Below, in pieces: positions 1-47,386 of a stretch of DNA of 64,000 bases (position 1 is the stretch's first letter; every line of letters begins with the position of its first letter). The position numbers and the translations under genes are program-made. The notes under the pieces were generated by a model. The model was not told the DNA's origin. It saw only the letters and a list, made by a program, of their open reading frames with translations, and searched no databases. The DNA comes from Deltaproteobacteria bacterium. GTDB lineage: Bacteria; Desulfobacterota; Binatia; HRBIN30; CADEER01. The DNA lies in the NCBI GenBank assembly GCA_033764095.1, contig JANRJF010000255.1, positions 20,154 to 84,153 of the forward strand. The letters are read 5' to 3'.

Positions 1-1
1 G

Positions 2-2020
2 ACCCACCTCAGCATCCTTATTTCAGCCGCCGAGCGTGCACTCCAGATGTTCGCATATGAAGATGCGGTACGTATGTACAGACAAGCGCTTGACTTCCTC
101 CCTCGCACGCCGGTCAACCAAAGGGAACGCTGCCAACTCCTCCTTTCACTCGGCGAAGCAGAGCGGCTTTCCGGGCGGGGTGGCGAGGCGCGTGAGGCGT
201 TTCGCGCCGCCGCCACGATAGCCAGATTATGCTCCGACATCGAACCATTCGCACAGGCCGCGCTCGGGCTGAGCGGGTTTCGCGCGTCAAACCCAGTCGA
301 CGTCGAGGCTATCAGCCTGATTGAGGAAGCACTTGAAAGAGCCGACCAACTCACTCTTGAGCTGCGCCACGAACTCCTCTGTGCGAGAATTGTTGCCCTG
401 CACTTCGCCCCCCACCTAACGGACATGAACAGGGACTGCGACGATGCGCTCTTTTTGGCCGACCAACTGAGGAACAATCGATCTCTCGCCCTTGCCTCGT
501 ATGCCAGACTCCTCACGGTCTTCGCCACAGTCCCCGCCGAAGAGATTAACAACCTTGCAGAACAAACTGCCGCCCTCGCGGAAACCTCGGGAGAGACCCG
601 CATCTACTTTGCTGCATTAACGTTCAGATATGGCGCACTGATCCGCCTGGGTCGGCTACCCGAATGCGATCGGATTCTTCACCAACTCATCCTCGCGACG
701 CAACGAGCCCCGTTTGCCCGACATCGCTGGCAACTCGCGCTGTTCGAAGCAGGCCGACGTCTAGCCTGGGATACACGGGAAAACATCAGGCTCTATATTG
801 AGCGAGCATTTGCCATCGGCGCCGACCTCGAACCTCTTACGGCCAGCCAACATGAAATCGCTCAAAAGGTTGTCCTAGAGTACTTGACGGGAAACCTGTC
901 GAACAACAGCGCCCTTCTTTTCGAAGCGGTGCAGACCCACCCTGACTCCGCAATCGCGCGTGCCGCTTGGGCGTTGTCGCTGTCTGACCCAGACAACCCG
1001 GCTGACGCTCAGGACGCGCTTTCATGGTTTTGCCCTGCGCGGATCGACTCGATTCCGGGCGCCTTCGCATCGCTCACCTTGGCGTTTCTCGCCGAAGCGA
1101 GTTTTCTTGCCGGGGATCGAACACTCGCCGTGCTTGTACACACGAGACTTGAAGCTTGGAGTGACGAACTAATTACACTGGGATTCGGAGCGGGCATAGT
1201 CGGTGCGGCGGGCTTCTATCTGGGACTCCTAGCTTGGCTTCAAAATGATCGCGCGCACGCGCTAGAGCTGCTAGAAGCCGCAGCAGAACTTGAACTCCGC
1301 GTCGGAGCACGACACTCATGGAGACGCACCCGGGCCGCCCTCTCCGCACTGAGGAATGGGCAGCGGACCTTCTCGATCCCCCGAGAAGATACCAACGATT
1401 TTGGCCGAGCCCCGAACCTCGGTCTCTCCGGCGGCGCTCCTCCTAGTGCACCACATCGGTTGCCGAATGTCTTCCGGAAGGAAGTCGGCGTCTGGACGAT
1501 TTGCTTCAACGGTCAGACTTCATACGTCCGCGATCAACTCGGCTTGGAGTATATTCGCCTGCTTTTGCGTGCCCCCGAGAAGGATATCCATGCGATTGAG
1601 CTAGTTCAGTCAGTCAGCCGCTCACCAGCGGAGACCCATCGCTTTCCAATTCACCAGACGGGCATCGAGCAAACAGACCGCGAGGCGCTGAACCAATATC
1701 GTCAGCGGCTGGCAGAGCTTTCCGCAGACATCGAGTCCGCGGACATCGACAACGATACCGGCCGAGCGGAACGCCTACGCGCGGAGCAGGAGTTGCTCTT
1801 GGAGGAGATTTCGCGGTCAAGGAACTATAAAAATCATATCCGCCGAGCGGGATCCGATGCCGAGCGGGCTCGCGTCGCCGTTAGAAATCGCATCACCAGC
1901 GCTTTGAAGAGCATAGGATCCGCTGACGCAAAGGCATCACGCCACCTGCAGAACGCGATTCGGACTGGCCTCTTCTGCTCGTACCGCCCAGAAGATTCCT
2001 GCAGGTGGGAACTCGACTGA
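2..2020 (+). CDS. TPR-repeat regulatory protein (STAND/MalT-like helical region), 5'-partial at window edge
   Basis: Reading frame is open from the window start through the ATG at 47 (no upstream in-frame stop). Helical TPR-like repeats (YRQALDFL, LGEAERLSG, several Ala/Leu-rich repeats). No recognisable HTH. Lower-GC codon usage. Confidence 0.45.
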   Translation, partial: THLSILISAAERALQMFAYEDAVRMYRQALDFLPRTPVNQRERCQLLLSLGEAERLSGRGGEAREAFRAAATIARLCSDIEPFAQAALGLSGFRASNPVDVEAISLIEEALERADQLTLELRHELLCARIVALHFAPHLTDMNRDCDDALFLADQLRNNRSLALASYARLLTVFATVPAEEINNLAEQTAALAETSGETRIYFAALTFRYGALIRLGRLPECDRILHQLILATQRAPFARHRWQLALFEAGRRLAWDTRENIRLYIERAFAIGADLEPLTASQHEIAQKVVLEYLTGNLSNNSALLFEAVQTHPDSAIARAAWALSLSDPDNPADAQDALSWFCPARIDSIPGAFASLTLAFLAEASFLAGDRTLAVLVHTRLEAWSDELITLGFGAGIVGAAGFYLGLLAWLQNDRAHALELLEAAAELELRVGARHSWRRTRAALSALRNGQRTFSIPREDTNDFGRAPNLGLSGGAPPSAPHRLPNVFRKEVGVWTICFNGQTSYVRDQLGLEYIRLLLRAPEKDIHAIELVQSVSRSPAETHRFPIHQTGIEQTDREALNQYRQRLAELSADIESADIDNDTGRAERLRAEQELLLEEISRSRNYKNHIRRAGSDAERARVAVRNRITSALKSIGSADAKASRHLQNAIRTGLFCSYRPEDSCRWELD

Positions 2021-2102
2021 CCACGAACTTCCCCATGAGTGGCACTCGTAGGCGCAGCCGTGCGATTAGTTCAGATATGGCGCGTTCGAGAAGTAAGACA
2101 CG

Positions 2103-3245
2103 TCACACCACACGCGACTGCCCGTTAATCACCGGCATATCCAAGCTTCCCCGCCCAAGCGCCTTATATGTCAAACCGGTTCTCGGATCAACTAACGTCG
2201 TAGCGTCGCTATGGAGCTTCGGTCGAGTATAAATTAAACGCAGTGCCTCAACGTGGCGCAATGATAAGTATCGGTCACCGTAAAGCCTGCGAATTGCCTT
2301 GCGGACGATAGGAGCATTTATGGCGCTCATCGTGGGAAAGATATGATGTTCGACGTGATATCCAAATTGGAGATGGATTGATTCGATAAAAGCAGGCGCT
2401 CGCACGGACACTGTATTGACAAGCGGATCGTTGGCAGATGTCAATGGGGTTAAGTAGTGGTTTGTGGCGATGTAGGACATTACAAGGGTATTTGCTGCTA
2501 GGGCGGGGACCACGACCAAGTAGGCGAAGTGTACAGGACCGAGGCACAGAAGCAGCAAGAGCCAAATACAAATCATGCTTCCCGTTTCGCAACAGACTCG
2601 CCGGAGAGAAATGCGCTTGTAGAACCCCCTTCGCATACTTTGCTTCAACAATACGACCCAAGCAACAACGGCGAAATGCGTGGGGAGGTAAAACCAGCTG
2701 GCAGTAGTCCCGGAGCCGGGCGCGATGGACTCCATAACCTTCAGGTAAGGGGTGCGCTCCCATAGATGAAGCGTACCGAAGTGATCGGTATCACCCATTA
2801 CATGACCCGTGTATGCGTGGTGGGTTTGATTATGCCACGCAACCCAGAACGTCGGAGACGTACAATATGGCAGCAGGCCAATGTATCCGACGATATTTTC
2901 GACGAGTCGGCTGCCCACCACGGCGTGATGCATCGTCTCATGGGCAAGAAACGTTATGCAGCCCCAACTGTGTCCCGCCAAAAGGCCGAACGGAACGGCC
3001 AACCACCAAGGCAGGTTGAGATACAATACGAGAACCGCCAGTGTGACAATGACCGTAAGATGTACCGCAAGCCAGGCCAACCGCACGGGGCGCCGTTGAA
3101 AAATCTCAGGAGGCAACTCTGCTCGGAGCTGCCGCGCGTATTCGTGCATTGTGGTAAGGCGCGCGCTTGAACCAGCAACATCCCTGCTGCCCGCATCAGC
3201 TTGCATTGGGGAGACGTCCATTTGACCGGATATAGATAGAACCAA
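2103..3245 (-). CDS. membrane-bound fatty acid desaturase family protein
   Basis: Three histidine boxes typical of integral-membrane desaturases (HETMHH, HNQTHH, HVEHH) plus several hydrophobic helices. The annotated start at 3245 is TTG; internal ATGs at ~3221 and ~3206 are possible true starts. Confidence 0.8.
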   Translation of the reverse strand: MVLSISGQMDVSPMQADAGSRDVAGSSARLTTMHEYARQLRAELPPEIFQRRPVRLAWLAVHLTVIVTLAVLVLYLNLPWWLAVPFGLLAGHSWGCITFLAHETMHHAVVGSRLVENIVGYIGLLPYCTSPTFWVAWHNQTHHAYTGHVMGDTDHFGTLHLWERTPYLKVMESIAPGSGTTASWFYLPTHFAVVAWVVLLKQSMRRGFYKRISLRRVCCETGSMICIWLLLLLCLGPVHFAYLVVVPALAANTLVMSYIATNHYLTPLTSANDPLVNTVSVRAPAFIESIHLQFGYHVEHHIFPTMSAINAPIVRKAIRRLYGDRYLSLRHVEALRLIYTRPKLHSDATTLVDPRTGLTYKALGRGSLDMPVINGQSRVV

Positions 3246-4515
3246 GCAAAAGACAGGAATTCACGCCGCCGTAGCCGTATCCGGTAACCAGTACGTTTTT
3301 CACGGATCGAGCCGTTGGCACGACCGGGAGGTTCGCCGTCAGATCACCCACTGCCGCCTCCCGAAGGTTTGTATTGGGCGGAACAATCTGGGTCGAAATG
3401 GCCAATGAGCCGGCGGCAACCTGAAAGGCCCCTGAAGCCCCAAATGGATGCCCAAGGACCCCTTTAATTGAGCTAATTGCTGGCGCTGACCCTGCCCCGC
3501 GCAGAGCGATCCTGAGAACCGCGCTCTCCTTGTCATCGAATGTCGGCGAAGAGTTTGCGTGGCTGCAGACGTAATCGATGTCTTTGGCCGATAAGCCGTA
3601 CCTCGACAGTAGTCGGAAGATTCCCTGCGCGGCCACATCGCCAGTCTGATCGATACGGTAGAGGCCCTTGGCATCGCACGAAGACTCACCCCCCAGAACC
3701 TCCGCCAACGGGGCGCCGGCCCGCTCAGCAGCTGCTGCGGCTTCCTCAAGCACGACAAAGCAGGCCCCTTCACTTAGCACGATTCCGGAATGCCTGCGGT
3801 CGAATGGACAAGACGAAAGACTTGGATCCTCGTTGAGCGTCGAGAGTTCCTGGGTTCTGCAAAGCGAGGCGAAGACGCTGGGACTCAATGGGGCCTCGGC
3901 GCCACCCGCGACGCAGAGGTCGGCTACACCCGCCTGAATCAGCAAGCTTCCTAGGCGGATTGCCTCCAATGCAGACGGGCACCCGTTCGCGATGGTCAAT
4001 TGCGGTCCTTGAGCGCCCAGTAGAGCTGCCACCTCTGCCCCCGGCCCGTGGCTAGCCGCTCCACTTACGATAAACGGATTGATCCGCCTGGCACCCCGCT
4101 CCAACATGAGGCCCACCTGAGCCTCAGCATCGGCCCAACCAGCCACCGCAGTCCCTACTACGACTGCTCTCCTGGACGGCGCATACGCACCTTCCTGCAA
4201 CCGCGCGTCCTCTGTCGCCAGCGCGGCCGCGGCGAGGGCGAACTGCGACACCCGGGGCGCGGTTCGAATCGTTCTGGAAGTCAGCAGAGGGAAAAACTCG
4301 TCGTCGGCGACCTGCCCGGCCACTCGGCACGACAAGGAGGAGGCGTCGAATCGGTCAATCGCGCGGATCGCAGACTTTCCCGAGAGAAGCGCCTTCCACA
4401 ACGCGCCCCTGCCTACGCCCACAGGCGCAACCGAGCCGATTCCGGTGATCACCGTCCGCCGTGCTGGGCTCGAAGGCCCCGGGGGAATCGCGCTTTCCAC
4501 AGGGAAACGCTTCAT
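3196..4515 (-). CDS. beta-ketoacyl-[acyl-carrier-protein] synthase (KAS I/II family)
   Basis: N-terminus RRTVITGIGSVAPVG is the classic KAS start. Full-length ~439 aa thiolase-fold condensing enzyme. Start lies 14 nt after the ACP stop. Confidence 0.85.
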   Translation of the reverse strand: MKRFPVESAIPPGPSSPARRTVITGIGSVAPVGVGRGALWKALLSGKSAIRAIDRFDASSLSCRVAGQVADDEFFPLLTSRTIRTAPRVSQFALAAAALATEDARLQEGAYAPSRRAVVVGTAVAGWADAEAQVGLMLERGARRINPFIVSGAASHGPGAEVAALLGAQGPQLTIANGCPSALEAIRLGSLLIQAGVADLCVAGGAEAPLSPSVFASLCRTQELSTLNEDPSLSSCPFDRRHSGIVLSEGACFVVLEEAAAAAERAGAPLAEVLGGESSCDAKGLYRIDQTGDVAAQGIFRLLSRYGLSAKDIDYVCSHANSSPTFDDKESAVLRIALRGAGSAPAISSIKGVLGHPFGASGAFQVAAGSLAISTQIVPPNTNLREAAVGDLTANLPVVPTARSVKNVLVTGYGYGGVNSCLLLGSIYIRSNGRLPNAS

Positions 4516-4528
4516 CTCGGATAGGCTG

Positions 4529-4783
4529 CTACCTTACGCCGGCAGCACACCCATGTATGTATTCGATTATGAGGCCGAGTTCGTTAAGCTCAATTATACG
4601 AATAGGATCTAGCTCGACATCGAACCTCTCTTCGAGCGCAACCTGCATCTCGACGAAAGCAACCGACTCCATGACGACATCCCTCTCTATCGTGGCGCGC
4701 TCATCGAGGGAAAGAGTTGGATCCTGCCCAAACTCCTTCAGCAACTGAAAAACGTACTCGGCAACCTCCTCACGACTCGGCAT
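4529..4783 (-). CDS. acyl carrier protein
   Basis: 84-aa product from an internal ATG (MPSREEVAEYVFQLLKEF...ERDVVMESVAFVEMQVALEERFDVELD). Four-helix ACP pattern with a phosphopantetheine-type Ser in the ESV motif. The upstream part of the 138-aa ORF is probably non-coding. Confidence 0.7.
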   Translation of the reverse strand: MPSREEVAEYVFQLLKEFGQDPTLSLDERATIERDVVMESVAFVEMQVALEERFDVELDPIRIIELNELGLIIEYIHGCAAGVR

Positions 4784-5060
4784 CTGAAACCTCGCGACGC
4801 CGGCCGCGAAAGCTCCGAGTCGTATCCCAAGAGTGCTGCACCGGGCGCCCTCCAGCGCCTGGGAGACCACCTCCCCAGAATGATCGCGCGTCTGGCAATG
4901 GCGGTCGCTCCAACTTTCGCGAGGTAGGTCCAGGATTTGGAACAACTGGCATCATTGACGGCTGAAGTCACGCTGAGTTACGCTTCGGGCCGGCGAGAAG
5001 TCAAGGCGATCTCCTTGGCTCCGCGAAGAACGACGCCAGCAGAGGCAACGAGACGCAATC

Positions 5061-5675
5061 GTGCGCAGCCGGACCATGCCGATAAGCACAAGAGATCTGC
5101 TCAAGGAGTTTTCGTTCAAGGTCGCCGTAGGACCTGACATTGGACCCGCCGTGAACCTCTTTCGACAGGTATATGAGGCTGACGTTGGCTTTGTGCCATC
5201 CGATGGAATGGACGATAGCGCTACCTACCTCATCGCCAAGTGCACCGATGGAGACGTCGCTGCTACATTGCGATTCCTCGGACCAGAGCATCGTCCCTTC
5301 GTGTTCGAAAAATCTTGTGAGGTGGCCCTTCCAGACGGCAGCAGGCCTGCCCTATTGAGCCGCTTTAGCGTGTCGCCGCTATTTCGCGCGGCTCCCCGCT
5401 CGATTGCGCTGCACTTTGGGATGTTGAAGCTTGCAGTCGAATTTGCGCTCCCCTTGGGCGTTACCGACCTTCTTCAATACACCCAGCCGCATCTCATCAA
5501 TTTCTACCGTGCTGCGTTCTTCGAAGCCACGGGTGTGACCTTTGAGTTGCCCCCCTTGCAGAGCAAGATGCATGTTCTTCGCCTCAACTTGCGCACGCTC
5601 GATGAGCGCTGCCGAGCCTCTAACTCCCGCGGCGCAGAGTTCCTTCGTTCTCCTGATCGAATTGTGACCCCGTAA
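5061..5675 (+). CDS. LuxI/FeeM-like N-acyltransferase (autoinducer synthase / N-acyl amino acid synthase family, GNAT fold)
   Basis: LuxI-family landmarks: R..VY....GF (equivalent to R24-F28-W34), acidic DGMDDSATYLI, RFLGP, LSRFSV (the E/L-SRFAV motif), GVTDLL...FYRAAGF. Size ~200 aa. Stop is 3 nt before the histidine kinase start. Confidence 0.6.
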   Translation: MRSRTMPISTRDLLKEFSFKVAVGPDIGPAVNLFRQVYEADVGFVPSDGMDDSATYLIAKCTDGDVAATLRFLGPEHRPFVFEKSCEVALPDGSRPALLSRFSVSPLFRAAPRSIALHFGMLKLAVEFALPLGVTDLLQYTQPHLINFYRAAFFEATGVTFELPPLQSKMHVLRLNLRTLDERCRASNSRGAEFLRSPDRIVTP

Positions 5676-5678
5676 GTA

Positions 5679-7772
5679 ATGCTCCCTTCCTGGTTCGTAC
5701 CCCTAGTGGCAGCCCTCGCAACGGCCGCGCTGGGCGTATTTGTCGCAGTGAGGGGACCGCGAGGCGAGCTGCGCGCCGCGTTTCTGTTTTTCGCCGCCAC
5801 CCTCGTCTTCTGGCACTGCTTTTATCTCGTTCTTTATTTGATACCCGACTACCAGACTGCCTTCGAGGGCGCTCGAATTCTTAGAGTCGGATCCTTCTAC
5901 ATGGTCGCCGCGGTCCTGCATCTTGCAGTTTCGGCGCGAGCAAGACCAAGGCGTCTTTGGCGGTGGATTGTCATTGGCAATTACGCTCTCGCCACCTCCT
6001 TCGTTGTCGCCAATGTATTTGACGTTTGGGTGAAGGAGCTTAGGCGAACCGACGCCGGATACGTCACAGTCGGCACGCGCTGGTACAGCATTCTGAGCCT
6101 CTACGCGTTGCTGAACTTTCTCGTCGCAATATCACTTTCGGTTCGTGACTACTGGATCACGAGGGACCCGCGGGTCAGACAGCAGGTAGGCTTTTGGCTC
6201 GCGGGCATGCTGGTCGCGCTCCCCCTCGGACTCACTAATTTCCTACCTGTTTACGGGGTCGAGTTTCCCCCGCTAGGCAATCTTGGAGCGGCCCTTTGGA
6301 CCGGAATCGTGGCGTACGCGATCGTCCGCCACAGATTGATGGACATCGACGTATTTGTCACCAAGGGGCTCGCTTACGCAGCAGTTACTCTTGTCTTGGT
6401 GACGCCAGCAATCGCAGTGTCAGTTATCCTACAGTGGTGGGCGTTCCGTGCGGTCGACTATGAATTTACGGCGGCGCTCGCGGTCCTGTTCTTGTCGATT
6501 GCCGTTTGTTTTCCGCTGGTTGTGTTCAGTGCCGAAGAGCGCCTGCAACGATCGCTGTTTCGCGCCCGCACCCAGACGCGTCGAGATCTTGCCGCCTTCT
6601 CCCGCAGCATGGTCAAAATTCTCGATAGACAAAGACTGATGGCGGAGATCTGCAACCGGCTGCACGATCTTCTCGACGTCGAACGGGTTGCAATTTACCT
6701 CTTGGATTCTTCAGGTACGCGGTTGGAACTTCGGAAGAGCCAAGGAACCCATGCAGAAACGACGGAGTTTGGGAGTCAACATCCGTTTGTTCGGTGGCTC
6801 GGCCGCCGATCCGAACCGTCGCTTCGCGAGGATGCGGAGGGGCTGGATACGGTGCAGGCAGTCTTTGTCGAGCAAGGGTGGGAGGTCTGCTTACCGATGC
6901 ATAGCGGACGTCAAATGCTCGGATTCCTAGCACTTGGGGCTCGGCATGGGAGGCAAGCGTTCGCGGGGGGCGATCTTGAGCAGTTGGCGGCTATCTCTGA
7001 CGAGGCGGGGGTCGCGTTTGAGAACGCTCGCCTGTACGAAGAGGTCCGGCGGTCCCGTGCAATCATTGATCGCACGAGCAGGCTCTCCTCGCTGGGAACC
7101 TTGGCCGCCGGGATTGCCCACGAGATCCGGAATCCTCTTGTATCGATCCATACGTTCTTCCAAATGGCGCCGACTCGACTCGGCGACGAAGAGTTCATGA
7201 CTTCATTCCTAGGACTGGCGGGAGAGGAGGTGCAGAGAATCAGTAGTTTGGTTGACGAGCTACTGATCTTTGGGAAATCGACGACGACGAATCCGACCGA
7301 GGTGCAGCCAAACGAGGTCGTCGATCGCGGCCTGGCCTTGCTAGCGCCACAGGCGCGTCAGAAGAATGTGACGCTCGATCGAAGTCTCTCAGAATCCCTC
7401 CCCCCCGTTCTGGCCGACGGCGATCAGTTGCTTCAGGTGCTCGTCAACCTGCTCCTGAATGCGATCCAAGCTACTTTGAGCGGCGGTCGCGTCACCGTCG
7501 AAACGCGCCTGATCACGGATGAGACGGGAGAATTCTGCCAGATCGAAATAGTCGACACGGGAGTCGGAATTCCCGCATCGGTTCGTGAAGCGATCTTCGA
7601 TCCCTTCTTTACAACGAAGGACCGTGGAACCGGTCTGGGCTTGTCCGTCGCGCATCGTATCGTCGCCGAATTTGGTGGGTTCCTCTCGGTCGAAAGCGCC
7701 GAAGGCCAAGGAAGCCGATTCAGCGTCAACCTACCTGCGTGCCGTAATCTGGAGTTTCCAGCTGGCGCTTAG
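5679..7772 (+). CDS. sensor histidine kinase: N-terminal ~7TM integral membrane domain, GAF domain, HisKA and HATPase_c (PrsK-like architecture)
   Basis: About seven hydrophobic helices in the first ~300 aa. GAF-like region (VAIYLLD...GFLALG). H-box LGTLAAGIAHEIRNPL. N/G1/G2 boxes (LLLNAIQA, DTGVGIP, GTGLGLSV). No receiver domain. Confidence 0.85.
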   Translation: MLPSWFVPLVAALATAALGVFVAVRGPRGELRAAFLFFAATLVFWHCFYLVLYLIPDYQTAFEGARILRVGSFYMVAAVLHLAVSARARPRRLWRWIVIGNYALATSFVVANVFDVWVKELRRTDAGYVTVGTRWYSILSLYALLNFLVAISLSVRDYWITRDPRVRQQVGFWLAGMLVALPLGLTNFLPVYGVEFPPLGNLGAALWTGIVAYAIVRHRLMDIDVFVTKGLAYAAVTLVLVTPAIAVSVILQWWAFRAVDYEFTAALAVLFLSIAVCFPLVVFSAEERLQRSLFRARTQTRRDLAAFSRSMVKILDRQRLMAEICNRLHDLLDVERVAIYLLDSSGTRLELRKSQGTHAETTEFGSQHPFVRWLGRRSEPSLREDAEGLDTVQAVFVEQGWEVCLPMHSGRQMLGFLALGARHGRQAFAGGDLEQLAAISDEAGVAFENARLYEEVRRSRAIIDRTSRLSSLGTLAAGIAHEIRNPLVSIHTFFQMAPTRLGDEEFMTSFLGLAGEEVQRISSLVDELLIFGKSTTTNPTEVQPNEVVDRGLALLAPQARQKNVTLDRSLSESLPPVLADGDQLLQVLVNLLLNAIQATLSGGRVTVETRLITDETGEFCQIEIVDTGVGIPASVREAIFDPFFTTKDRGTGLGLSVAHRIVAEFGGFLSVESAEGQGSRFSVNLPACRNLEFPAGA

Positions 7773-8148
7773 AGCGGTGGTTAATCCGAACCGCGAGTTG
7801 GACGGGTTCGGCAAACAACGGGCGGCAAGCGGGATACCGGCGAGCGCACGCTTTGGGATGCCGTGCATCCGGGGCGGCGCTGGAGCGAGTTCCAGCCGAT
7901 TCGCGGCCACGGTGCTCGCCAATTGGCGACGCGGCCAAGACGTGCCGTCGCCGCCGCAAGTCGCCAGGACCAAGCAGCGTTCCAAACGTCAGATATTGAA
8001 CGATGGCATCATTCCTGACGACATCTTCGAAGAGCCGGCCGACGACGCCGACAACGACTCAAACCCGGATACTTAGCCTCAAACCCGGACAGTCCCTCGC
8101 CCCTAGGTCGATTGATTCCGGGCGCGGGGCCTGCGAGAATAGGGTTCT

Positions 8149-8658
8149 ATGCCGCGCGCTGGTAAGGCTGAATCGTTGTTCAAGGTTGGAGAGAAGGTCG
8201 TCTACCCTGCACACGGAGTCGGCGTAATCCAGAGCATCCAGACCAAGGTCGTCTCCGGGACCGAGAAGACGTTTTACATGCTGAAAATCCTGGACAGCGA
8301 CATGACCATCATGATCCCGACCGAGAACGTGGCCTCCGTGGGGCTGCGGCGGGTGATCGGGCGGGAAATGGTCACCAAGGTCTACAAGATCCTGCGCGAG
8401 AAGCGGGTCGAGATCGACCAACAGACGTGGAACCGGCGCTACCGGGAGTACACCGAGAAGATCAAGACCGGCTCGGTCCTGGAGATCGCCAAGGTGCTGC
8501 GCGACCTGTTCGTGCTGAAGGGCGACAAGGAGCTGTCCTTCGGCGAACGGAAGATGCTGGATACGGCGCGCAACCTGCTGGTCAAAGAGCTCTCCATCGC
8601 TCGCTCCCACCCGGAGGAGAAGATCATGGAAGAGCTCAAGAACATCTTCGCCCACTGA
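8149..8658 (+). CDS. cdnL: CarD/CdnL family RNA polymerase-binding transcription factor
   Basis: FKVGEKVVYPAHGVGVIQSI, the CarD_CdnL_TRCF N-terminal RNAP-interacting domain. 169 aa. Immediately upstream of ispD, as in many Actinobacteria and Myxococcota. Confidence 0.9.
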   Translation: MPRAGKAESLFKVGEKVVYPAHGVGVIQSIQTKVVSGTEKTFYMLKILDSDMTIMIPTENVASVGLRRVIGREMVTKVYKILREKRVEIDQQTWNRRYREYTEKIKTGSVLEIAKVLRDLFVLKGDKELSFGERKMLDTARNLLVKELSIARSHPEEKIMEELKNIFAH

Positions 8659-19984: not shown

Positions 19985-21183
19985 GCGTGGGTTCTCGGCG
20001 CAGCGTCACCGAGAATGGCGACGACCGCTGTCTGAATCGGTTCTCCTGTCACAACGATCTCCGATCGGTCAACAAAGGCGTTCAGCTCGCTGCGCACGCC
20101 GAACTCGCCGGGCAGATACACGCCCGGCTCGACCGAGAAGCAGGTGCCGGGCAGCAGCCGGCGCGTGTCCGGCGTCTCGAAGCCATCGATGTTGGCGCCG
20201 TTGCCGTGCACCTCGACACCGATCGAATGGCCGGTGCGATGCACGAACTGCGGCCCATACCCGGCCGCTTCGATGACGCCGCGGGTCGCGGCATCGACGT
20301 CACAGCCGCGCAGCGGCGTGCCGTCGGCGAGCCCGCGACGCGCCGCCGCGACGCCGGCGTCGCGCGCCCGGCGCACGACGTCGAACACCGCCGCATGGCG
20401 CTCCGGCACCGCGCGGCCGACATAGCCAGTCCAGGTGATGTCGGCGTAGACGCCGTCGGGCTCCTTCGCCCAGAGGTCGATGAGGACGAACTCACCGGCG
20501 CCGATCGACCGCCCCGCGGCGGGCGTCTCGTAATGCGGATCGGCGCTGTGCGGGCCGGCGGCGACGATCGGGGGGTGATGGGTGACCAGGCCGTCCTGCG
20601 CGAAGCGCTCCAACAGGAAGCGCTGCACGCCGCCCTCGTCGCAGGGCCGGCCGGCGCGGCAGCGGGCGCCGATCTCGGCGAAGGCCGCGTCCACCGCCGC
20701 GCGCACCGCGCGCGCGGCGCGGCAGTGGCTGGCGTACTGCGCCGCGCTCCACACCGCCTCGAAGCGCTGCACCAGGTCGGCCGCGGTCCGTACCTCGACG
20801 CCGCAGCCGCGCACCAGCTCGACCGTACCGGCGTCGACCCGTGCGACGTACGGCACGGCGTTGAGCGGCGAGTACTGCATGGCAACGGTGCGCAGGCCGG
20901 CGAGCATCTCCGCCAGGCCGGCGTGCAACTCCTGCCAGGTGCGATAGACGCGCATCGCGCCGGGGAGTCCGCGCAAGGCGGCGGGCTCGACTGCCGACAC
21001 CAGGCCGCGCGGGGCGCCGGCGGTCGGGACCAGGTAGAACCAGCGCCGCGTCGCCAGGCGGTCGCCGAGCTCGAGGATGCGCGCCGCGATCGGATCGCTG
21101 CCGCGGAAGTCGCAGAACAGCCAGGCGTCGAGCCCCTCTTCCGCCACGGCGGCCTGCATGGCCGCCAGTCGATCCGCCTGCAT
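19981..21183 (-). CDS. M24 family metallopeptidase (Xaa-Pro aminopeptidase/creatinase-like)
   Basis: C-terminal pita-bread domain with metal ligands (DLWAKEPDGVYADITWTG, HRTGHSIGVEVHG, SVEPGVY) and an N-terminal creatinase-like domain. Confidence 0.85.
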   Translation of the reverse strand: MQADRLAAMQAAVAEEGLDAWLFCDFRGSDPIAARILELGDRLATRRWFYLVPTAGAPRGLVSAVEPAALRGLPGAMRVYRTWQELHAGLAEMLAGLRTVAMQYSPLNAVPYVARVDAGTVELVRGCGVEVRTAADLVQRFEAVWSAAQYASHCRAARAVRAAVDAAFAEIGARCRAGRPCDEGGVQRFLLERFAQDGLVTHHPPIVAAGPHSADPHYETPAAGRSIGAGEFVLIDLWAKEPDGVYADITWTGYVGRAVPERHAAVFDVVRRARDAGVAAARRGLADGTPLRGCDVDAATRGVIEAAGYGPQFVHRTGHSIGVEVHGNGANIDGFETPDTRRLLPGTCFSVEPGVYLPGEFGVRSELNAFVDRSEIVVTGEPIQTAVVAILGDAAPRTHA

Positions 21184-38923: not shown

Positions 38924-40126
38924 TTACGGCATCGTGATGAAGTCCGGCGTGGCGCGCTCGCCCGCCTGATGGATGTTGAATGCCGTCGTGGCGCGCACCG
39001 TCCCCAGATCGTTCGGATCGGTGCGGTAGAACTCCTCCGCCACGCCGAGCAGGCCGTTGCCGTGCAGCGGCGAGCCGTCATCCACACCGCGGATGCGAGT
39101 CTGGCCGGTGAGGGTTCCGGAGACATAGGCGCTGAACACCGAGAACTGGCAGCTGTTGGAGGTCGGATCGTCGTCGAAGATGGCGCGATCCTTACCGGTG
39201 CCCAGCGAGCACAGTTCGAATTCCTTGAAGCAACGCACAGGACGGCTGGCGGAGAAGCGCTGCTCGAACTCGTTGAAGACCAGGAACTGCGCGGTCGTGC
39301 TGAACAGTGCGACGTCCTGCAGGAGGAAATTCTGCGAGCACGGCACCAGCGTCAGGTGCGTCTTGACATACTGGTTGCTGACCGGTTCGACCGCGTCGTC
39401 GAAGAAGTGGTTCAGGATGAGAACGTTCGGGCAGCCGTTGTACTCAGGATCTTCGCCGCCCAGAACCAGCGTGTTGTCGCCATCGTTGGCGCCGGCGATC
39501 GCCTGGATGCCGATGCCGTTGTAGGCGCGCGCATCGATCGAGCTGTCGTCGTAGGTGATGATCGACACTTCGGCCTTGACGTCATTGCGATCGACCGGTG
39601 CATCGTCCGGGCCGACCTGGACGCACTTGAGCTCGCCCATGAACGGGTCTTCATTGACCGCCGGAACCGAGCCCTCCTGGCCGGCATCAGCCAGCGGCAT
39701 CGAGGTGAGCCCTTCGCTGATGCGCCAGATCAGGGGCTGATGCGGCGTCATCGTGATCTCGAAGTCGGTCTCGATCCAGCCCTCGAAGCACAGCCCACCC
39801 GGGATCGGCGTCTGGCAATCCGCCGCTACCGAGCAGACCCGCGACGGATCGTTGGTGCAGTGCGAGTTCGCGTTCACGTAGAAACAACGCATCTTGACCG
39901 CCTGGTCCGATACGTTGGTGATCTGAATCTCGGTGTCGACCGGGTCGCCGTTACCGGTCAGCACACCGAGATCACCGTCGGAGTCGAAGATCAGCTTTGG
40001 GATGACGATCAGGCCAGCCGGCCGATCAGAGGTCACGTCAGCGCGCGAGGCCCCCGCCGTCAACATCAGTCCGCCGAGGATCGCCAGCGCGCCCGCGAGG
40101 ACAGGATTACGCTTCACCGTACGCAT
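38924..40126 (-). CDS. secreted Cys-rich hypothetical protein, paralog A
   Basis: ATG (MRTVKRNPVLAGALAILGGLMLTAGASRA signal peptide) preceded by AAAGGAGAAGGG. ~400 aa. Paralogous to the next gene. Confidence 0.7.
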   Translation of the reverse strand: MRTVKRNPVLAGALAILGGLMLTAGASRADVTSDRPAGLIVIPKLIFDSDGDLGVLTGNGDPVDTEIQITNVSDQAVKMRCFYVNANSHCTNDPSRVCSVAADCQTPIPGGLCFEGWIETDFEITMTPHQPLIWRISEGLTSMPLADAGQEGSVPAVNEDPFMGELKCVQVGPDDAPVDRNDVKAEVSIITYDDSSIDARAYNGIGIQAIAGANDGDNTLVLGGEDPEYNGCPNVLILNHFFDDAVEPVSNQYVKTHLTLVPCSQNFLLQDVALFSTTAQFLVFNEFEQRFSASRPVRCFKEFELCSLGTGKDRAIFDDDPTSNSCQFSVFSAYVSGTLTGQTRIRGVDDGSPLHGNGLLGVAEEFYRTDPNDLGTVRATTAFNIHQAGERATPDFITMP

Positions 40127-40179
40127 TGCCCTTCTCCTTTCAACCGTCAGGGAGAACCCAGCCACAACCACTTCCGCGC

Positions 40180-41424
40180 TCACAGATCCGGAAGCGTGAC
40201 CTTGTCCACGACCTCGCCACCGCTGGCGGTGAATCGATCACCTTCCATGTGGATGTTGAGCGCGGCGCGGGTCAGGTTGCCCGACGAATCGGCGCGAGTC
40301 ACTCCGGCGACGCCGAGCACCGCGCCGCCATCCGGATTCGGGATGATGCGGGTGTGGGCGGCGACAGTCCCCAGGGAGCCGAAGGAGAACACGGACTTCT
40401 CAGGATTGTTCGGGCTGTCGACCTCGAACAGGTAGAAGTTCTTCCAGCAATCGACGGTCGTGCTGGCCGAGAAGACCTGCTCAAACTCGTTGTAGATCTT
40501 GAACTGGACCGTCACGCTGGCCGGCGTGGCGTTCTCGAAGTCCTCGGTGCACGGGATCAGCGTCAGGTCGGTCAGAGAGGCGCTGACCAGATCGATGTCG
40601 CCGGCCATGTTTTCGATCTGCGGCGGGTTGTTGCACACGCCCGTGCAGTCCGCATCGCTGTAGCACGGCGTATTGACCGGTGCGCTGCAGGTGCCGCCCC
40701 GGAGGTTGGCGTACAGCACGGGATCGGTAACGCCCTCCGAGAGGTGGTTGAGGAGCAGGACGTTCGGGCAGGCGTCGTACTGACCGACTGCTTCCTCGGC
40801 TTCCAAGGGCTGGTTCAGCAGCAACTCGTTGCCGGTCTCGCCGGCGAGGTCGGTGCCCTGGATACCAATCGCATTGTACTTGGAGACGTCGTTGTCGGCC
40901 GAGATCAGCGTCGCCTCACCCTTCAGATGGTTGCCGCCGATCGGATTGCCGGCGACGTCCACCTCGACGCACTTGAGCTCGCCGACGAAGTCCTCCAGCA
41001 CCGGCGGGACAGCTCCTGGATCGATACCAGCATTCGAGCATTGCGGGCTCGGCTGATAGCGACCGTCCGAGCTAGAGCAGACGTCGGTCGGATTGACGAA
41101 GCGACCGGTGCTCACCTGCCAATGGGTCGGCTGCTGCTTGGTGAGCCAGATGGTGAAGTCGGTCACCTGCCATTGCGGGATTCCGAAGAAGTCCGGCGCG
41201 GCATTCACATAGAAGCAGTGCGCGTGCACCATGTTGTTCGAAATGTTGGTAATTTGGATGATGGTGTCACCATCTTCCGAATTGGCCAGGACCTTCGGGA
41301 AAGCGAGGATCGATGCTCCCCTCTCCGTCGTGACGGCCGCGTGCGCGGTGCCGGCCATCATCCCCAGCGCCACCGCGACCCCGCAGAGCCCTGAGAGAAA
41401 AGCATTCCGCTTCTCCGTTCGCAT
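40180..41424 (-). CDS. secreted Cys-rich hypothetical protein, paralog B
   Basis: ATG (MRTEKRNAFLSGLCGVAVALGMMAGTAHA signal peptide) preceded by GAAAGGAGGAGGG. ~414 aa. Shares motifs with paralog A (IQITN.S, CFYVNA, GELKCV.V, NGIGIQ, CPNVL.LNH, FNEFEQ.FSAS, NIH). Confidence 0.7.
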   Translation of the reverse strand: MRTEKRNAFLSGLCGVAVALGMMAGTAHAAVTTERGASILAFPKVLANSEDGDTIIQITNISNNMVHAHCFYVNAAPDFFGIPQWQVTDFTIWLTKQQPTHWQVSTGRFVNPTDVCSSSDGRYQPSPQCSNAGIDPGAVPPVLEDFVGELKCVEVDVAGNPIGGNHLKGEATLISADNDVSKYNAIGIQGTDLAGETGNELLLNQPLEAEEAVGQYDACPNVLLLNHLSEGVTDPVLYANLRGGTCSAPVNTPCYSDADCTGVCNNPPQIENMAGDIDLVSASLTDLTLIPCTEDFENATPASVTVQFKIYNEFEQVFSASTTVDCWKNFYLFEVDSPNNPEKSVFSFGSLGTVAAHTRIIPNPDGGAVLGVAGVTRADSSGNLTRAALNIHMEGDRFTASGGEVVDKVTLPDL

Positions 41425-41755
41425 TGCCCTCCTCCTTTCCAGTCGGCCGAGACTCATACCTCACTCCCTTGCATTCGAAACCAAGACGCGGCCGCGCTTT
41501 TTTTGGACGCGGCTGCAGAAGTGGCGCGTTACATACTCAAAATTCAAACACATTGTCAAGGGAATATCGGGCGTTGCACCGCGGCGTACGGACAAACCGT
41601 TCATGTCCGACTATTCCGCGTCACTGGATGAGCGCCCCTCGCTTGCGGCTCAGCCTGCCAATGCCCGTCCCCTCTCCCTCTACCGTTTCGGTGGGCGCTT
41701 AGATCACGTTTCGCCGAACCGGTCAAATGCAAAACCGGGGACGAGATGTACGCAA

Positions 41756-44265: not shown

Positions 44266-47010
44266 TCATGGACAGCCGAGATTGATGTTGTTGATGGCGA
44301 TGGTGATGTCGTTCGCCCGCACCCGTCCATCGCCGTTGAAGTCGGCCGCCAGGCACGCGTCGAGCGGCTGGGTGCCGTTGATGATGTTGACCATGATGGT
44401 GATCTCGTTGGCGCGCACGCGGCCATCGAGGTTGCAGTCACCGACGCATTCGCACTGATCGTTCACGCAGGCCTGGCGGTCATCCAGGCACTGGCCCGGC
44501 CCGGCCATCGGTCCGTCGCACTCGATGATCGGACGGCACTCGTTGCCCTTGCACTCCGTGCCCGAGGGGCACTCATCCGGCTTCGTGCACGGCGGACGCG
44601 GCTTGATCTCGAGCTCGCCACCACTCACCTGCGCGTCAAACGGGTTGGCGCCCGGATCAGCGATCTCGAGACGGTCGAGATCGTACAGCAGCTGGCTCGT
44701 GCTCGGCGACGCCGCCGGCGCAATGCGGAAGTTGCACTGCCAAACCGGCCCTGAGCCGAAGGAGTCGATCGGCGGCATCTTGTCGATCACCGCAACGCGC
44801 AGCCGGCCCAGACCCGGCGGATTGGTTGGCACCTGCGGCAGCTGCACCTCGGCTTCGAAGGAACCTTCCTGCAGCATGCGCGGATGCAACGTGCAGGCCG
44901 GCGTACCGATCGGGACTTCCAGCAGGGAGAGGTCGTAGAGAATGTCCACCTGCGCGGTGGTGATGTCGTCGCCGCCGGCAAGGCCGATATTCACCGTGAC
45001 GTACTCACCCGGGATGCCGGTGATCTTCGGCACTTCGATGGTGCGGGTCTCGCTGCTGCGGTCGAGCGCGTAGATCAGCGGCGACCCCTCGCCCGGGCAG
45101 CCGAGGCCGAGGTTGTTGACTGCCAGCGTGATGTCACCGGCGGTCACCTCGCCGTCCTGGTTGATGTCGCCCGCCGGGCAGATGCCGATACCGCATCCGC
45201 CACCGACGATGCAGACCATCTTCGTGATCTCACTGCCGAAGACGATACCGTCCAGGTTGCAGTCGCCGCCGCACTCACAGATCCCCTCCAGGCAGGTTTC
45301 ACGAATGCCGCGGCATTCGATCTGACCGTCGGGGCACGGCCGCGGCGGCACGCAGACCATGGCGCGGCACTGCGTCCCCTCCGGGCAGTCCTCGTCGACC
45401 ACACAGGTCGGCAGCGGCGTCGGCGTCACCGTCGGCGTCGACAAATCGCGGCAGACACCGTCGACACAGAACAGACCAGACGGGCAGTCTTCGGTCCTGT
45501 CGCAACGGATCGTCGGCGTCGGCGTCGGCGCCTCCACGCACACGTCGTCGGGGCCGCACACCTGCCCAACCGGGCAGTCGGTGTCACGCTGACACGGAAT
45601 CCTACGGGTGGGTGTCGGCGTCGGCGGCGGTGTATCGGTCTTCGTCGCCGTCGCTTCCACCGTCACGTTGGCGCGGATGTAGGCGTCGAGGTAGCCCTGC
45701 GTGTCGGCCGGCACCAGGTTGGTCGCCAGCGACTGGAACGCAACCCAACCGCCGTTGAGACTGATGCTGGGCGGCAGGTCAGGCACGCTGCCGTTCGCCG
45801 GCAGACCATCGACGCTGGAGCTCACCAGGGTCGTGGTCTGCTGCTGCAGGTCGCGCACATACACCTGCGAGTTGCCGTTGGTAGTCACGCCCGCCAACAG
45901 GTTGCTGGCGAACGACCCGAAGGCGACGAAACGGCCGTCGCCACTGATGCTCGGCGGAATGGCGATGTCGTTGCCCTGCTGGCCCATCTCACCGACGCTG
46001 ACGCGCTGCGTCTCGCCGCTCGTGCAGTCGTGCACGAAGACGTCGGCCGCCTGGTTGGTGTCGCCGGCGACCAGGTTGGTGGCGTTCGACTTGAACGCGA
46101 CGATGGTCCCGTCGGCGTTGAGGGCCGGCAGGAAGCTCATCTGGTTGGCCTCGACCCCGGCGCTGCTGACGCTGGCGCGGCAGTACACGGCGCCGTCACA
46201 GGCCACGTAGATGTCGATCACGCCGTTGGTGTCGGGCGACGAGGGGAGCAGGTTGGTCGCGCCGGAGGCAAAGGCGACACAGCGACCGTCAGCGCTGATC
46301 GACGGGGCCACGCTCGGGCCGTTCGCCTGCACGCCGCCGGGTCCGACACTGATCAGCGTCGTCGTGCCGGCGCTGCGGTCACGGACAAAGACGTCGGAGG
46401 TCTGGTTGGTGTCGTCAGGCACCAGATTGCTCGCGACGGAATGGAACGCCACCAGGTTGCAGTTGCTGTTCACGCTGGTGAACGAACTGCCGCCGTCGGT
46501 GGGACCATCGATCCCGACGCTGATCAACTCGGTGGTGGATCTCGTCAGGTCACGCACGTAGACGTCGGTGCGCCCGTTGGTGTCGTTCGGCACCAGGTTG
46601 GTCGCGTCGGAACTGAACGCCACGCAGGTGCAGTCGCTGTCGATCGACGGACGGAACCGCTGCGCCTGACTCGGCCCGTTCGCCGCCTGGCCGCTCGAAT
46701 TGACGCTGACGCGCGTGGTCTGCTCCGCATCGCGGTTGTAGACATACACGTCGGTGAAACCGTTGGTGTCGTTCGGAACCAGGTTGGTGGCATCCGAGTA
46801 GAACGCGACGCAGCGGCCATCGGCGCTCGGCACCGCGCCGCTGCTGTTGCCGTTCGGCTGGCCGCCGCTGGCGCTGACGCTGACCAACTCGACCGGCGGA
46901 TACGGATTCAGCGGCGCGGTCTTGGCCACCTGACCGGTGAGGGTCAGCACGGCAACGAACACGCCCACTCCACACAACGCAACGGTGACCGCTTTTCGTC
47001 CGGCGTTCAT
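44266..47010 (-). CDS. large secreted multidomain protein: 7x PD40/TolB-like beta-propeller repeats, Cys-rich modules, cohesin-like domain, two dockerin (type I-like) modules
   Basis: ATG at 47010 with GGGGAGGTG SD. Signal/TM AVTVALCGVGVFVAVLTL. Seven ~44-aa repeats S.DGR.VAF.S.A.NLV..DTN...DV.V.D. Modules C..D.DCP.G..C....C. Dockerin pairs GDCNLDG.V...EIT.MV / GDINQDGEVTAGDITLAVNNLG and DCNLDGRVRANEITIMVNIING / DFNGDGRVRANDITIAINNINLG. Cohesin-like GIPGEYVTVNIGLAGG...VDILYDLSLLEV. Confidence 0.8.
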   Translation of the reverse strand: MNAGRKAVTVALCGVGVFVAVLTLTGQVAKTAPLNPYPPVELVSVSASGGQPNGNSSGAVPSADGRCVAFYSDATNLVPNDTNGFTDVYVYNRDAEQTTRVSVNSSGQAANGPSQAQRFRPSIDSDCTCVAFSSDATNLVPNDTNGRTDVYVRDLTRSTTELISVGIDGPTDGGSSFTSVNSNCNLVAFHSVASNLVPDDTNQTSDVFVRDRSAGTTTLISVGPGGVQANGPSVAPSISADGRCVAFASGATNLLPSSPDTNGVIDIYVACDGAVYCRASVSSAGVEANQMSFLPALNADGTIVAFKSNATNLVAGDTNQAADVFVHDCTSGETQRVSVGEMGQQGNDIAIPPSISGDGRFVAFGSFASNLLAGVTTNGNSQVYVRDLQQQTTTLVSSSVDGLPANGSVPDLPPSISLNGGWVAFQSLATNLVPADTQGYLDAYIRANVTVEATATKTDTPPPTPTPTRRIPCQRDTDCPVGQVCGPDDVCVEAPTPTPTIRCDRTEDCPSGLFCVDGVCRDLSTPTVTPTPLPTCVVDEDCPEGTQCRAMVCVPPRPCPDGQIECRGIRETCLEGICECGGDCNLDGIVFGSEITKMVCIVGGGCGIGICPAGDINQDGEVTAGDITLAVNNLGLGCPGEGSPLIYALDRSSETRTIEVPKITGIPGEYVTVNIGLAGGDDITTAQVDILYDLSLLEVPIGTPACTLHPRMLQEGSFEAEVQLPQVPTNPPGLGRLRVAVIDKMPPIDSFGSGPVWQCNFRIAPAASPSTSQLLYDLDRLEIADPGANPFDAQVSGGELEIKPRPPCTKPDECPSGTECKGNECRPIIECDGPMAGPGQCLDDRQACVNDQCECVGDCNLDGRVRANEITIMVNIINGTQPLDACLAADFNGDGRVRANDITIAINNINLGCP

Positions 47011-47386
47011 GTCGGTCTCACCTCCCCTAAATCCGACGCGCCGCGCAGCGTGCCCGTTGCCTGCGCGACACGGCACTCACATCGTCTCGCGACCGCGCAT
47101 GCCGAACACCGCCGCTCCACTCCGGCGTCGGCACTCAGGCTCTCGAGCCGTCGAGCCGAGGTTTCGGATCTTTCCGTTCACGCGCGTGTCGACCAACTCG
47201 TCTGCGACTGGTTTCAGTGCCGGCACCGTACAATGTTCAACGGCAAAGTCAAGGATGTTTGATGCATGACAGAGCAGCATCAGATAGCCCAAAGATTGTT
47301 TGCTGACGCCGACTTGCACCGGGCACGCGATGCTGATTGTCGCATGCATAACGCAAGTCGCGGGGCGCGGCGGGTGACCTGGTAAG

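Follow-up and report, generated by a model that had tools for sequence, protein, structure and literature searches.

We analysed a 64-kb window (the whole stretch of 64,000 nucleotides, positions 20,154 to 84,153 of contig JANRJF010000255.1, from a Deltaproteobacteria bacterium of the lineage Binatia, assembly GCA_033764095.1, a metagenome-assembled genome with locus tag SF182_17060), in which two adjacent forward-strand genes, for a putative lipid N-acyltransferase and a membrane-bound sensor kinase, are the subject of this report. The first gene (5061..5675, +) encodes a GNAT N-acyltransferase homolog of the FeeM/LuxI fold, here called the synthase, which is 204 amino acids (aa) long from a GTG start at 5061 and carries Leu98 at the position of the canonical catalytic Glu. 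The second (5679..7772, +) encodes a sensor histidine kinase of 697 aa with an ATG start and about nine transmembrane (TM) segments within aa 5-287, made up of a HisKA_7TM region plus two. Only 3 nt separate the synthase stop codon from the kinase start codon, the two genes are probably co-transcribed, and an operon for an acyl carrier protein (ACP), a beta-ketoacyl-ACP synthase (KAS) and a fatty-acid desaturase lies divergent from the pair. An earlier reading of the letters without database searches (the sequence-only reading) had proposed both open reading frames (ORFs), the 3-nt gap and the adjoining operon; all were found as described, and Pfam and NCBIfam matches identified the three operon products. 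The synthase and kinase are genuine genes rather than chance ORFs, because homologs with retained synteny occur on >50 independent contigs and because AlphaFold, run with the family alignment, modelled the synthase with a predicted local distance difference test score (pLDDT) of 95.4 and a predicted template modelling score of 0.90.

Evidence for a functional link within the pair came from related loci. A metagenome scan with an alignment of the sensor returned 385 relatives; the 80 best loci were retained, and these showed two arrangements: class A, which includes the window and has sensors 39-59% identical, and class B, with sensors 30-36% identical. Seen from the sensor, a synthase gene lies directly upstream on the same strand in 41 of the 42 class A loci with at least 650 nt of upstream sequence, and a FeeM-like gene lies divergent from the kinase gene in 23 of the 29 class B loci to which the same requirement applies. 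The pairing thus survives a changed gene order, which is strong evidence that the two proteins are functionally linked. Seen from the synthase, a kinase gene follows directly in every locus with downstream sequence, down to a synthase identity of 28%; these kinase orthologs are 38-54% identical, the gap is a few nucleotides or the stop and start codons overlap, and a divergent ACP gene is present in most. The idea that synthase and kinase form a linked unit therefore stands, as a strongly conserved pair tied to an ACP-KAS operon across related loci. A search of genome contigs with a four-sequence synthase alignment returned three genomes, and the closest genome loci of the module are in Candidatus Binatia metagenome-assembled genomes. 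Taken together, the pair recurs in dozens of Binatia-like soil bacteria. We conclude that the module is real, conserved and uncharacterised; its function is what we infer, from sequence, in the paragraphs below.

The synthase belongs to none of the well-described acyltransferase families in a straightforward way. Its sole Pfam match was FeeM (PF21926; 26.9 bits, E=4.8e-6), 0.1 bit short of the gathering threshold of 27, and at E<0.1 it matched neither Pfam Autoind_synth (PF00765) nor any NCBIfam model, TIGR03694 included. It is therefore not a member of TIGR03694, the exosortase-associated family of N-acyl amino acid synthases (NAS) that the sequence-only reading had suggested, although the description of the protein as neither a canonical LuxI nor an obvious FeeM fits these scores and the LuxI/FeeM fold well. 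The further remark that no biochemical characterisation exists holds for this subfamily and fails for the wider NAS family, since FeeM and NAS enzymes from environmental DNA have been characterised biochemically (PMC4897644). An exhaustive HMMER search of 1.84 billion representatives found a small family of relatives (123 proteins at E≤1e-3, nearly all of about 200 aa). Among 61 aligned members, 47 matched FeeM (E<0.01), 47 matched Acetyltransf_5, 8 matched Autoind_synth weakly and 30 matched TIGR03694 weakly (best score, E=7e-9), so that the family sits between described families; some members also match OlsB weakly, and the family profile matches the acyl-homoserine-lactone synthase TofI (E=1.8e-4). 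The nearest structural neighbour of the AlphaFold model is FeeM, not LuxI, at a sequence identity of 13-15%; LuxI-type structures also rank high among the fold matches, and the closest structural neighbours are GNATs that depend on a carrier protein. The predicted model confirms a FeeM-like GNAT fold for the synthase, which founds a small, distinct subfamily. Because its homologs align from 'MPISTRDLLKEF', the true start may be the ATG at 5076, giving a protein of 199 aa.

All of the synthase motifs quoted in the sequence-only reading are legible in the translation (R35..V37-Y38....G43-F44, D48/D51/D52, R71-F-L-G-P75 and L99-S-R-F-S-V104). Mutagenesis of LuxI and RhlI has identified conserved catalytic or S-adenosylmethionine-site residues in the order R, F, W, D, D, R, E, R. 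The equivalents R35-x-x-V-Y38, D48/D51, R71 and R101 are present in the window protein, with Phe44 in place of the Trp and Leu98 in place of the Glu. The sequence-only reading had named loss of the conserved R/F/D/E/SRF positions as evidence against a LuxI- or NAS-type enzyme, and this applies in part, since the Glu of E-x-S-R-F is gone. In profile alignments the beta4 motif of the family, pA-x-i-G-R-f-c-v, aligns on TofI WELSRF, MesI AAEI..TRF and RpaI YELSRI, and the Glu-bearing family members align Glu-to-Glu with all three at the position of Leu98. This mapping of residue 98 rests on LuxI-type synthases, and its equivalence to FeeM E95 is taken from the literature (PMC4897644), in which FeeM E95 and Nas354 E103 are regarded as the catalytic residues of NAS enzymes and the Nas354 E-to-A substitution (E103A) abolished the haemolytic and surface-active phenotypes that depend on activity. 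Among the 61 family members the residue-98 column reads L28/E14/Q8/V4/M3/T1.

The remainder of the active-site region is well preserved in the family. P79, R109, Y149 and F154 are invariant, R78, E83, R71 and Y38 are conserved at ≥95%, and the Leu clade strictly keeps R71, R78-P79-F80, E83, R109, Y149 and F154; Q-type members also lose R101. We offer E83 as a candidate replacement base, which is a conjecture. When residue 98 was compared with the neighbouring acyl genes at unique class A loci with visible upstream genes (14 with non-Glu and 14 with Glu-type synthases), an acyl-CoA dehydrogenase (ACAD) or desaturase gene stood alongside 13 of the 14 non-Glu synthases (L/Q/M/T98) and only 4 of the 14 Glu-type synthases (Fisher p=0.0013, uncorrected for phylogeny). 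The Glu is retained in all 23 scorable class B enzymes. The correlation argues that the GNAT acts on acyl-ACP from the divergent operon, and it favours an active site adapted to a modified (unsaturated) acyl donor over one that has simply decayed.

The kinase has the Pfam domains HisKA_7TM (9-223), GAF/GAF_3 (316-449), HisKA (472-534) and HATPase_c (580-687), with HisKA_7TM (PF16927) passed at 29.9 bits against a gathering threshold of 28.6, and no receiver domain was detected with Pfam. The sequence-only reading had described about seven TM helices, a GAF domain and no receiver; the polytopic membrane region, the GAF domain and the missing receiver were confirmed, and the helix count was too low, because hydropathy gives about nine hydrophobic segments, the HisKA_7TM region being followed by two more before the GAF domain. 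No large extracytoplasmic loop interrupts these segments, and several sensor motifs, some of them intramembrane, are strongly conserved (ALPLGxTNxLPxYG, PLGNLG and YAIVRHRLMDI). A sensor without a sizeable loop and with conserved intramembrane motifs is as expected for the detection of a lipid or membrane signal. The H-box (HEIRNPL) and G-boxes (DTGVGI, GTGLGL) are intact, and the kinase core is AtoS/ZraS-like, a type usually partnered with NtrC-family regulators. The protein has the PrsK-like combination of a polytopic TM region, an extra domain and a kinase core without a receiver, yet the suggested membership in PrsK did not hold, since the PrsK model TIGR02916 scored 125.8 bits against a cut-off of 300 (residues 204-686 on model positions 201-679). 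HisKA_7TM is merely listed as a sensor domain in the literature (PMC5847659), and the stimulus of PrsK 'remains obscure' (Haft 2006, PMC1569441).

The genes divergent from the pair encode the parts of a small acyl-chain pathway. The dedicated ACP (4529..4783, -) passes Pfam PP-binding at 22.3 bits (gathering threshold 20.8) and is 51% identical to the ACP of a related locus (L001) from residue 58. Its ORF can be extended to a TTG at 4945; homologous ACPs (87-108 aa) align only from Met55 of this ORF and thus favour a start there, so that the 54-codon extension (4784-4945) is probably an untranslated leader and the ACP/synthase intergenic region spans about 280 nt. The FabF-like KAS of the KAS II type (3196..4515, -) matches Pfam ketoacyl-synt at 123 bits and its C-terminal domain at 65 bits, and carries the Cys/His/His motifs NGCPS, SHANSS and LGHPFGASG. 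Its score against the fabF model TIGR03150 (302 bits, cut-off 494) indicates a paralog and not the housekeeping FabF. The desaturase (2103..3245, -) is a membrane-bound di-iron enzyme with three His boxes (HETMHH, HNQTHH and HVEHH) that scores 98 bits against Pfam FA_desaturase and 219.7 bits against the NCBIfam DesB-like model, which has a cut-off of 500.

Among the class A loci with at least 3.5 kb of upstream sequence, an ACP gene divergent from the synthase was present in 21 of 22, a KAS gene in 21 of 22 (orthologs 49-54% identical), an ACAD-like gene in 13 of 22 and a desaturase gene in 1 of 22, which is the window itself. Class A loci also contain genes for an MMPL protein (15 of 22), carD (9 of 22) and an AAA_16/TPR protein (5 of 22), and in many loci the cluster adjoins carD-ispD. 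In most relatives an ACAD-like gene stands between the ACP and KAS genes, whereas the window has no ACAD gene and instead has the desaturase gene after the KAS gene; the only desaturase homolog in the related loci is in L053, where it follows the kinase gene. We conclude that the desaturase is a lineage-specific component and that the double-bond-forming enzyme of the cluster, desaturase or ACAD, is interchangeable. In class B, ACP, KAS and ACAD-like genes are not a feature, and desaturase and AAA_16/TPR genes were not found; an MMPL gene forms an operon with the FeeM-like gene in 9 of 11 loci, and carD was seen in 1 of 11. No exosortase or PEP-CTERM genes were found among the conserved neighbours in the ~80 loci, which are ACP, KAS, ACAD and MMPL genes.

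Regulation by sigma-54 is suggested at the class B loci. There, the FeeM-like/MMPL operon has as its neighbours the genes for a PrsK-like 7TM-GAF kinase, for an NtrC-type regulator and for a second kinase; a sigma-54 activator gene of the NtrC type, with the second kinase downstream, was present in 13 of 17 loci. In all 14 class B loci examined, a sigma-54 promoter of the form GGCA[C/T]-N5-TTGC is followed by AGGAGG and then, ~23 nt on, by the ATG of the FeeM-like gene. The promoter is nearly identical among these loci, which lie within L063-L092 (xGGCAC[G/A]GCGGTTGC[A/T], for example upstream of L087:7073-8149 (-)). Overall, sigma-54 sites matching at 10 of 12 positions or better numbered 61, compared with 63 expected from shuffled sequence, so that only the positional cluster in class B is meaningful. 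Because this promoter occurs in 14 of 14 loci, the class B synthase and exporter are predicted to be sigma-54-dependent, beside a sigma-54 regulator and a kinase. The class B FeeM-like proteins pass the Pfam PF21926 threshold (29-41 bits), a class B kinase relative aligns over the full PrsK model TIGR02916 at 134.9 bits, and a class B regulator scores 340.8 bits against the PrsR model TIGR02915 (cut-off 502.6); the cut-offs for TIGR03694, PrsK and PrsR were reached by no class B protein.

In class A, a sigma-54 activator gene was present in 9 of 22 loci with at least 2.5 kb of downstream sequence, and in 8 of these 9 the activator is a sensor-fused paralog of the kinase. This paralog, which lies directly downstream of the kinase gene in L005:12669-15053 (+), L023:10179-12650, L022, L028, L030, L042, L044, L054 and L059, is ~800 aa long and joins a 7TM-GAF module to a Sigma54_activat domain and a Fis-type HTH_8 domain, with no receiver. 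It is ~27% identical to the kinase over 460 aa and keeps the motifs PLGxLG and Y-A-x-V-R-H-R-x-M-D-I. Its predicted domain order makes it a polytopic, membrane-anchored enhancer-binding protein, and we found no description of a 7TM-GAF sensor fused to a sigma-54 activator in the searchable literature.

The class A intergenic regions between the ACP and synthase genes contain a different kind of element. Of 38 such regions, 28 contain GTCAAG (1.9 expected) and 19 contain TTGACT (1.6 expected), and when aligned these form an inverted architecture, TTGACt-N17-22-GAAgGTAc-N18-aGTCAAg. The window copy, a conserved divergent promoter/operator region at 4955..5005, consists of TTGAC (4955-4959), GTTAC (4977-4981) and GTCAAG (5000-5005), with its left arm 5 nt nearer the centre than in most relatives. 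The element may represent two sigma-70-type promoters, divergent and overlapping, with a common central -10 sequence, or an operator. No sigma-54 -24/-12 element is conserved in the class A ACP/synthase intergenic region, window included, and a sigma-70/terminator scan of window positions 1900-8200 gave nothing above chance.

One explanation for these observations, to which we assign a probability of about 0.5, is that the gene pair may be the core of a conserved module that makes, exports and senses a lipid amide. In such a pathway the dedicated ACP would carry a special unsaturated acyl chain made by the KAS and desaturase, and the GNAT would pass this chain to an amine, most likely that of an amino acid, so that an N-acyl amide lipid is formed. 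The lipid amide would then partition into the membrane or be exported across it, the loop-less polytopic sensor of the kinase would detect it inside the membrane, and the kinase would in turn address an unlinked regulator that is probably of the NtrC/sigma-54 type. The chances that the kinase responds to the product of the pathway appear to be evenly balanced. LuxN, which has nine predicted TM helices, holds acyl-homoserine lactone in a site between TM4 and TM7 and passes its signal to the sigma-54 activator LuxO (PMC5007282), would by analogy be a functional precedent for a lipid-sensing polytopic kinase. From the sequence, the loop might equally run between cells, as in quorum sensing, or within one cell, as in envelope-lipid homeostasis.

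Several results weigh against a module that makes and senses its own lipid amide. The synteny fits equally well with a kinase that only regulates the pathway. The canonical catalytic Glu is replaced by Leu98 in the window synthase, and given the inactivity of the equivalent Nas354 E-to-A variant (PMC4897644), catalysis in the Leu98 clade is not assured. At L055 (3752-10154), which is the single class A exception to the synthase-kinase pairing, at L061 and in one L051 copy (3-5565), MMPL, KAS and kinase genes stand on one strand without a synthase gene, indicating that the sensor kinase can be tied to lipid genes without a GNAT; L051 carries both this arrangement and a full class A module. The class A synthase and ACP promoters are sigma-70-like and not sigma-54-type, so the feedback wiring suggested by class B is not demonstrated for the window type. 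The 64-kb window yielded no gene for a receiver domain, a sigma-54 AAA+ domain, a second kinase or MMPL, and thus lacks a response regulator (including the PrsR-like sigma-54 regulator for which the sequence-only reading had advised a search), a sigma-54 activator and the exporter. Synthase and sensor identities correlate across loci in a mirror-tree-style comparison (r=0.75), and we rejected this value as evidence of co-evolution because shared ancestry and co-inheritance alone explain it.

The most serious competitor is a cluster for the synthesis of envelope lipids that has a housekeeping regulator. Here the GNAT would produce an outer-membrane lipid or structural aminolipid (compare OlsB/GlsB), MMPL would export it, and the kinase would sense membrane state or an external cue and simply control expression, with no signal molecule involved. 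We regard this as possible, though less probable than a self-sensing module. Dedicated ACP, KAS and ACAD genes together with MMPL are typical of bulk specialised-lipid pathways, the conserved carD-ispD site in many loci suggests a vertically inherited core function, and the weak OlsB and Acetyltransf_5 matches of some family members point the same way, as does the general association of sigma-54 with lipid and envelope genes (PMC3162934). The position of the class B kinase and regulator beside the sigma-54 promoter of the synthase/MMPL operon would likewise fit regulated production of such a lipid. However, we noticed no OlsA/GlsA-type O-acyltransferase for a second acylation in the loci, a tight operon with a kinase, which is usually of low abundance, would be unusual for a bulk-lipid enzyme, and the second copy of the sensor module, joined at this locus to a sigma-54 activator, hints at a ligand specific to the locus; none of the three points settles the matter. 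It is improbable, in our judgement, that the GNAT is instead a pseudo-enzyme, catalytically impaired by Leu, Met, Thr or Gln at position 98, that reports the acylation state of the ACP to the kinase as an acyl-ACP- or lipid-binding subunit. Replacement of the canonical Glu in roughly half of the family, the additional loss of R101 from Q-type members, the strict co-transcription with the kinase gene, often with overlapping stop and start codons, and the effect of the equivalent E-to-A change on the activity-dependent phenotypes of Nas354 (PMC4897644) would all agree with such a role. Set against them are the strict retention of the other family invariants in the Leu clade, the availability of E83 as a candidate base, and the correlation of Glu loss with an acyl-modifying enzyme, which is easier to reconcile with an adapted active site than with a dead one. 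Many GNATs, moreover, work without a dedicated general base.

We also considered whether the pair belongs to a system that is already known. The architecture of the kinase resembles PrsK, the class B kinase can be aligned along its entire length with TIGR02916, 30 of 61 family members match TIGR03694 weakly, and NAS genes have been linked to PEP-CTERM systems (Craig 2011, in the passages of PMC4897644 and PMC11072679 that cite it), all of which would suit a TIGR03694 synthase with PrsK in the known PEP-CTERM/exosortase set. Membership in that set is nonetheless essentially refuted and retains very little of our credence: the synthase has no TIGR03694 match at E<0.1, the kinase falls well short of the PrsK cut-off, the class B proteins fail the same cut-offs, a PrsR-type regulator is absent from the window, and the conserved neighbours are ACP, KAS, ACAD and MMPL genes and not exosortase or exopolysaccharide genes. 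An exosortase, for which the sequence-only reading had also proposed a search, was not found among the seven larger window ORFs sampled with Pfam. Equally far-fetched is the pairing of a LuxI-type synthase for acyl-homoserine lactones with a receptor kinase like LuxN. The profile match to TofI, the LuxI-type structures among the top fold matches and the shared R-x-x-V-Y...G and D..D motifs speak for it, but Autoind_synth does not match the window protein and matches only 8 of 61 relatives, the LuxI catalytic Glu and conserved Trp are absent, FeeM is the best structural neighbour, and the kinase is not a hybrid like LuxN.

Compared with characterised systems, the module of synthase, kinase and lipid genes thus fails membership in TIGR03694, PrsK, PrsR and LuxI and is borderline for Pfam FeeM. 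Relative to FeeM and other NAS enzymes, the synthase has Leu98 in place of the catalytic Glu (FeeM E95, Nas354 E103) and an invariant set of its own (E83, R109, Y149 and F154), and it is always coupled to a kinase, a coupling not described for FeeM. The PEP-CTERM NAS with PrsK/PrsR (Haft 2006, PMC1569441; Craig 2011) shares three kinds of parts with the module, namely an acyltransferase resembling FeeM, a kinase that has a polytopic TM region and an additional cytoplasmic domain, and enhancer-binding regulators of the sigma-54 type. The module differs from it in failing all three curated hidden Markov model cut-offs, in having ACP, KAS, ACAD or desaturase, and MMPL neighbours in place of exosortase and exopolysaccharide genes, and in that the class A sigma-54 activator itself bears the membrane sensor in place of a receiver domain.

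In LuxM/LuxN, AinS/AinR and CqsA/CqsS of Vibrio and LqsA/LqsS of Legionella, the gene for an acyl-derived signal synthase likewise lies beside that for a multi-TM histidine kinase, and this adjacency is what is conserved here, in 41 of the 42 class A loci and in 23 of the 29 from class B. The synthases of these systems belong to families unrelated to ours, neither LuxM/AinS nor CqsA being a GNAT, and their sensors have no detectable homology to the module kinase, which has a GAF domain and no receiver; nor do LuxM/LuxN-type systems include a dedicated ACP, KAS and desaturase or an MMPL exporter. LuxM/LuxN-type kinases bind their hydrophobic signal within the TM bundle; ligand binding by the module kinase is putative. 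By analogy, then, the module would resemble the LuxM/LuxN and CqsA/CqsS synthase/receptor-kinase pairs in function, and NAS-PrsK-PrsR in its parts list. The HisKA_7TM kinases (PF16927) are a sequence family without a known ligand, within which the module kinases form a subgroup marked by two additional TM segments, by a GAF domain and, as its defining trait, by the partner synthase.

A bolder extension, which we advance only tentatively and think rather unlikely to hold in full, is that these loci represent an undescribed lipid-amide signalling family found mainly in Binatota-like soil bacteria. A FeeM-like synthase would be fed by its own ACP, KAS and desaturating enzyme to make an N-acyl signal peculiar to the lineage, MMPL would export the product, two paralogous 9TM-GAF receptors (the kinase and the membrane-anchored sigma-54 enhancer-binding protein) would perceive it, and the active-site chemistry of the synthase would co-evolve with the modification of the acyl chain, yielding signal 'dialects'. 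If true, this would provide the first concrete ligand hypothesis for PrsK-like kinases. The pairing merges two open questions, the role of bacterial NAS enzymes and the stimulus of PrsK-like kinases, into one testable ligand-receptor hypothesis that involves few genes, and the module also draws attention to signalling or envelope chemistry in the candidate phylum Binatota. If real, the paralog that is a membrane-anchored sigma-54 activator would link a membrane signal to transcription in an unusual manner. Our literature search found no publications on a FeeM-like synthase/kinase pairing or on a HisKA_7TM ligand; the 2011 paper on NAS and PEP-CTERM lay outside that search.

The base composition of the cluster differs from that of its surroundings. 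GC content is 56-60% in the first 8 kb of the window and ~70% or more across most of the remainder, and the same contrast is seen in relatives (0.53-0.60 in the cluster compared with 0.65-0.72 outside it in L003-L005). We rejected a recently acquired horizontal island as the explanation of the low GC, since both the low GC and the carD-ispD neighbourhood recur in relatives; this recurrence indicates that low GC is a long-standing trait of the module and not the mark of recent transfer.

At the left end of the window, positions 1..2020 (+) encode the C-terminal ~670 aa of an AAA_16 ATPase/TPR-type protein truncated by the window start. The ORF is listed as 47..2020, its frame is open from base 2, and the fragment is 30% identical to residues 495-1187 of a 1188-aa protein (L004:12741-16307). 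The full-length protein is STAND-like and ~1190 aa long, of which the window has the C-terminal two-thirds; the 5 of 22 class A loci that carry it are counted among those with enough downstream sequence, and no DNA-binding domain was detected in the AAA_16/TPR protein. Two further observations elsewhere in the window are unrelated to the gene pair. Two adjacent ORFs of ~420 aa at 38924-41457 (-) have coding-like GC at third codon positions and no Pfam match, and a 936-aa protein encoded at 44266-47076 (-) combines PD40 repeats with a C-terminal dockerin domain.

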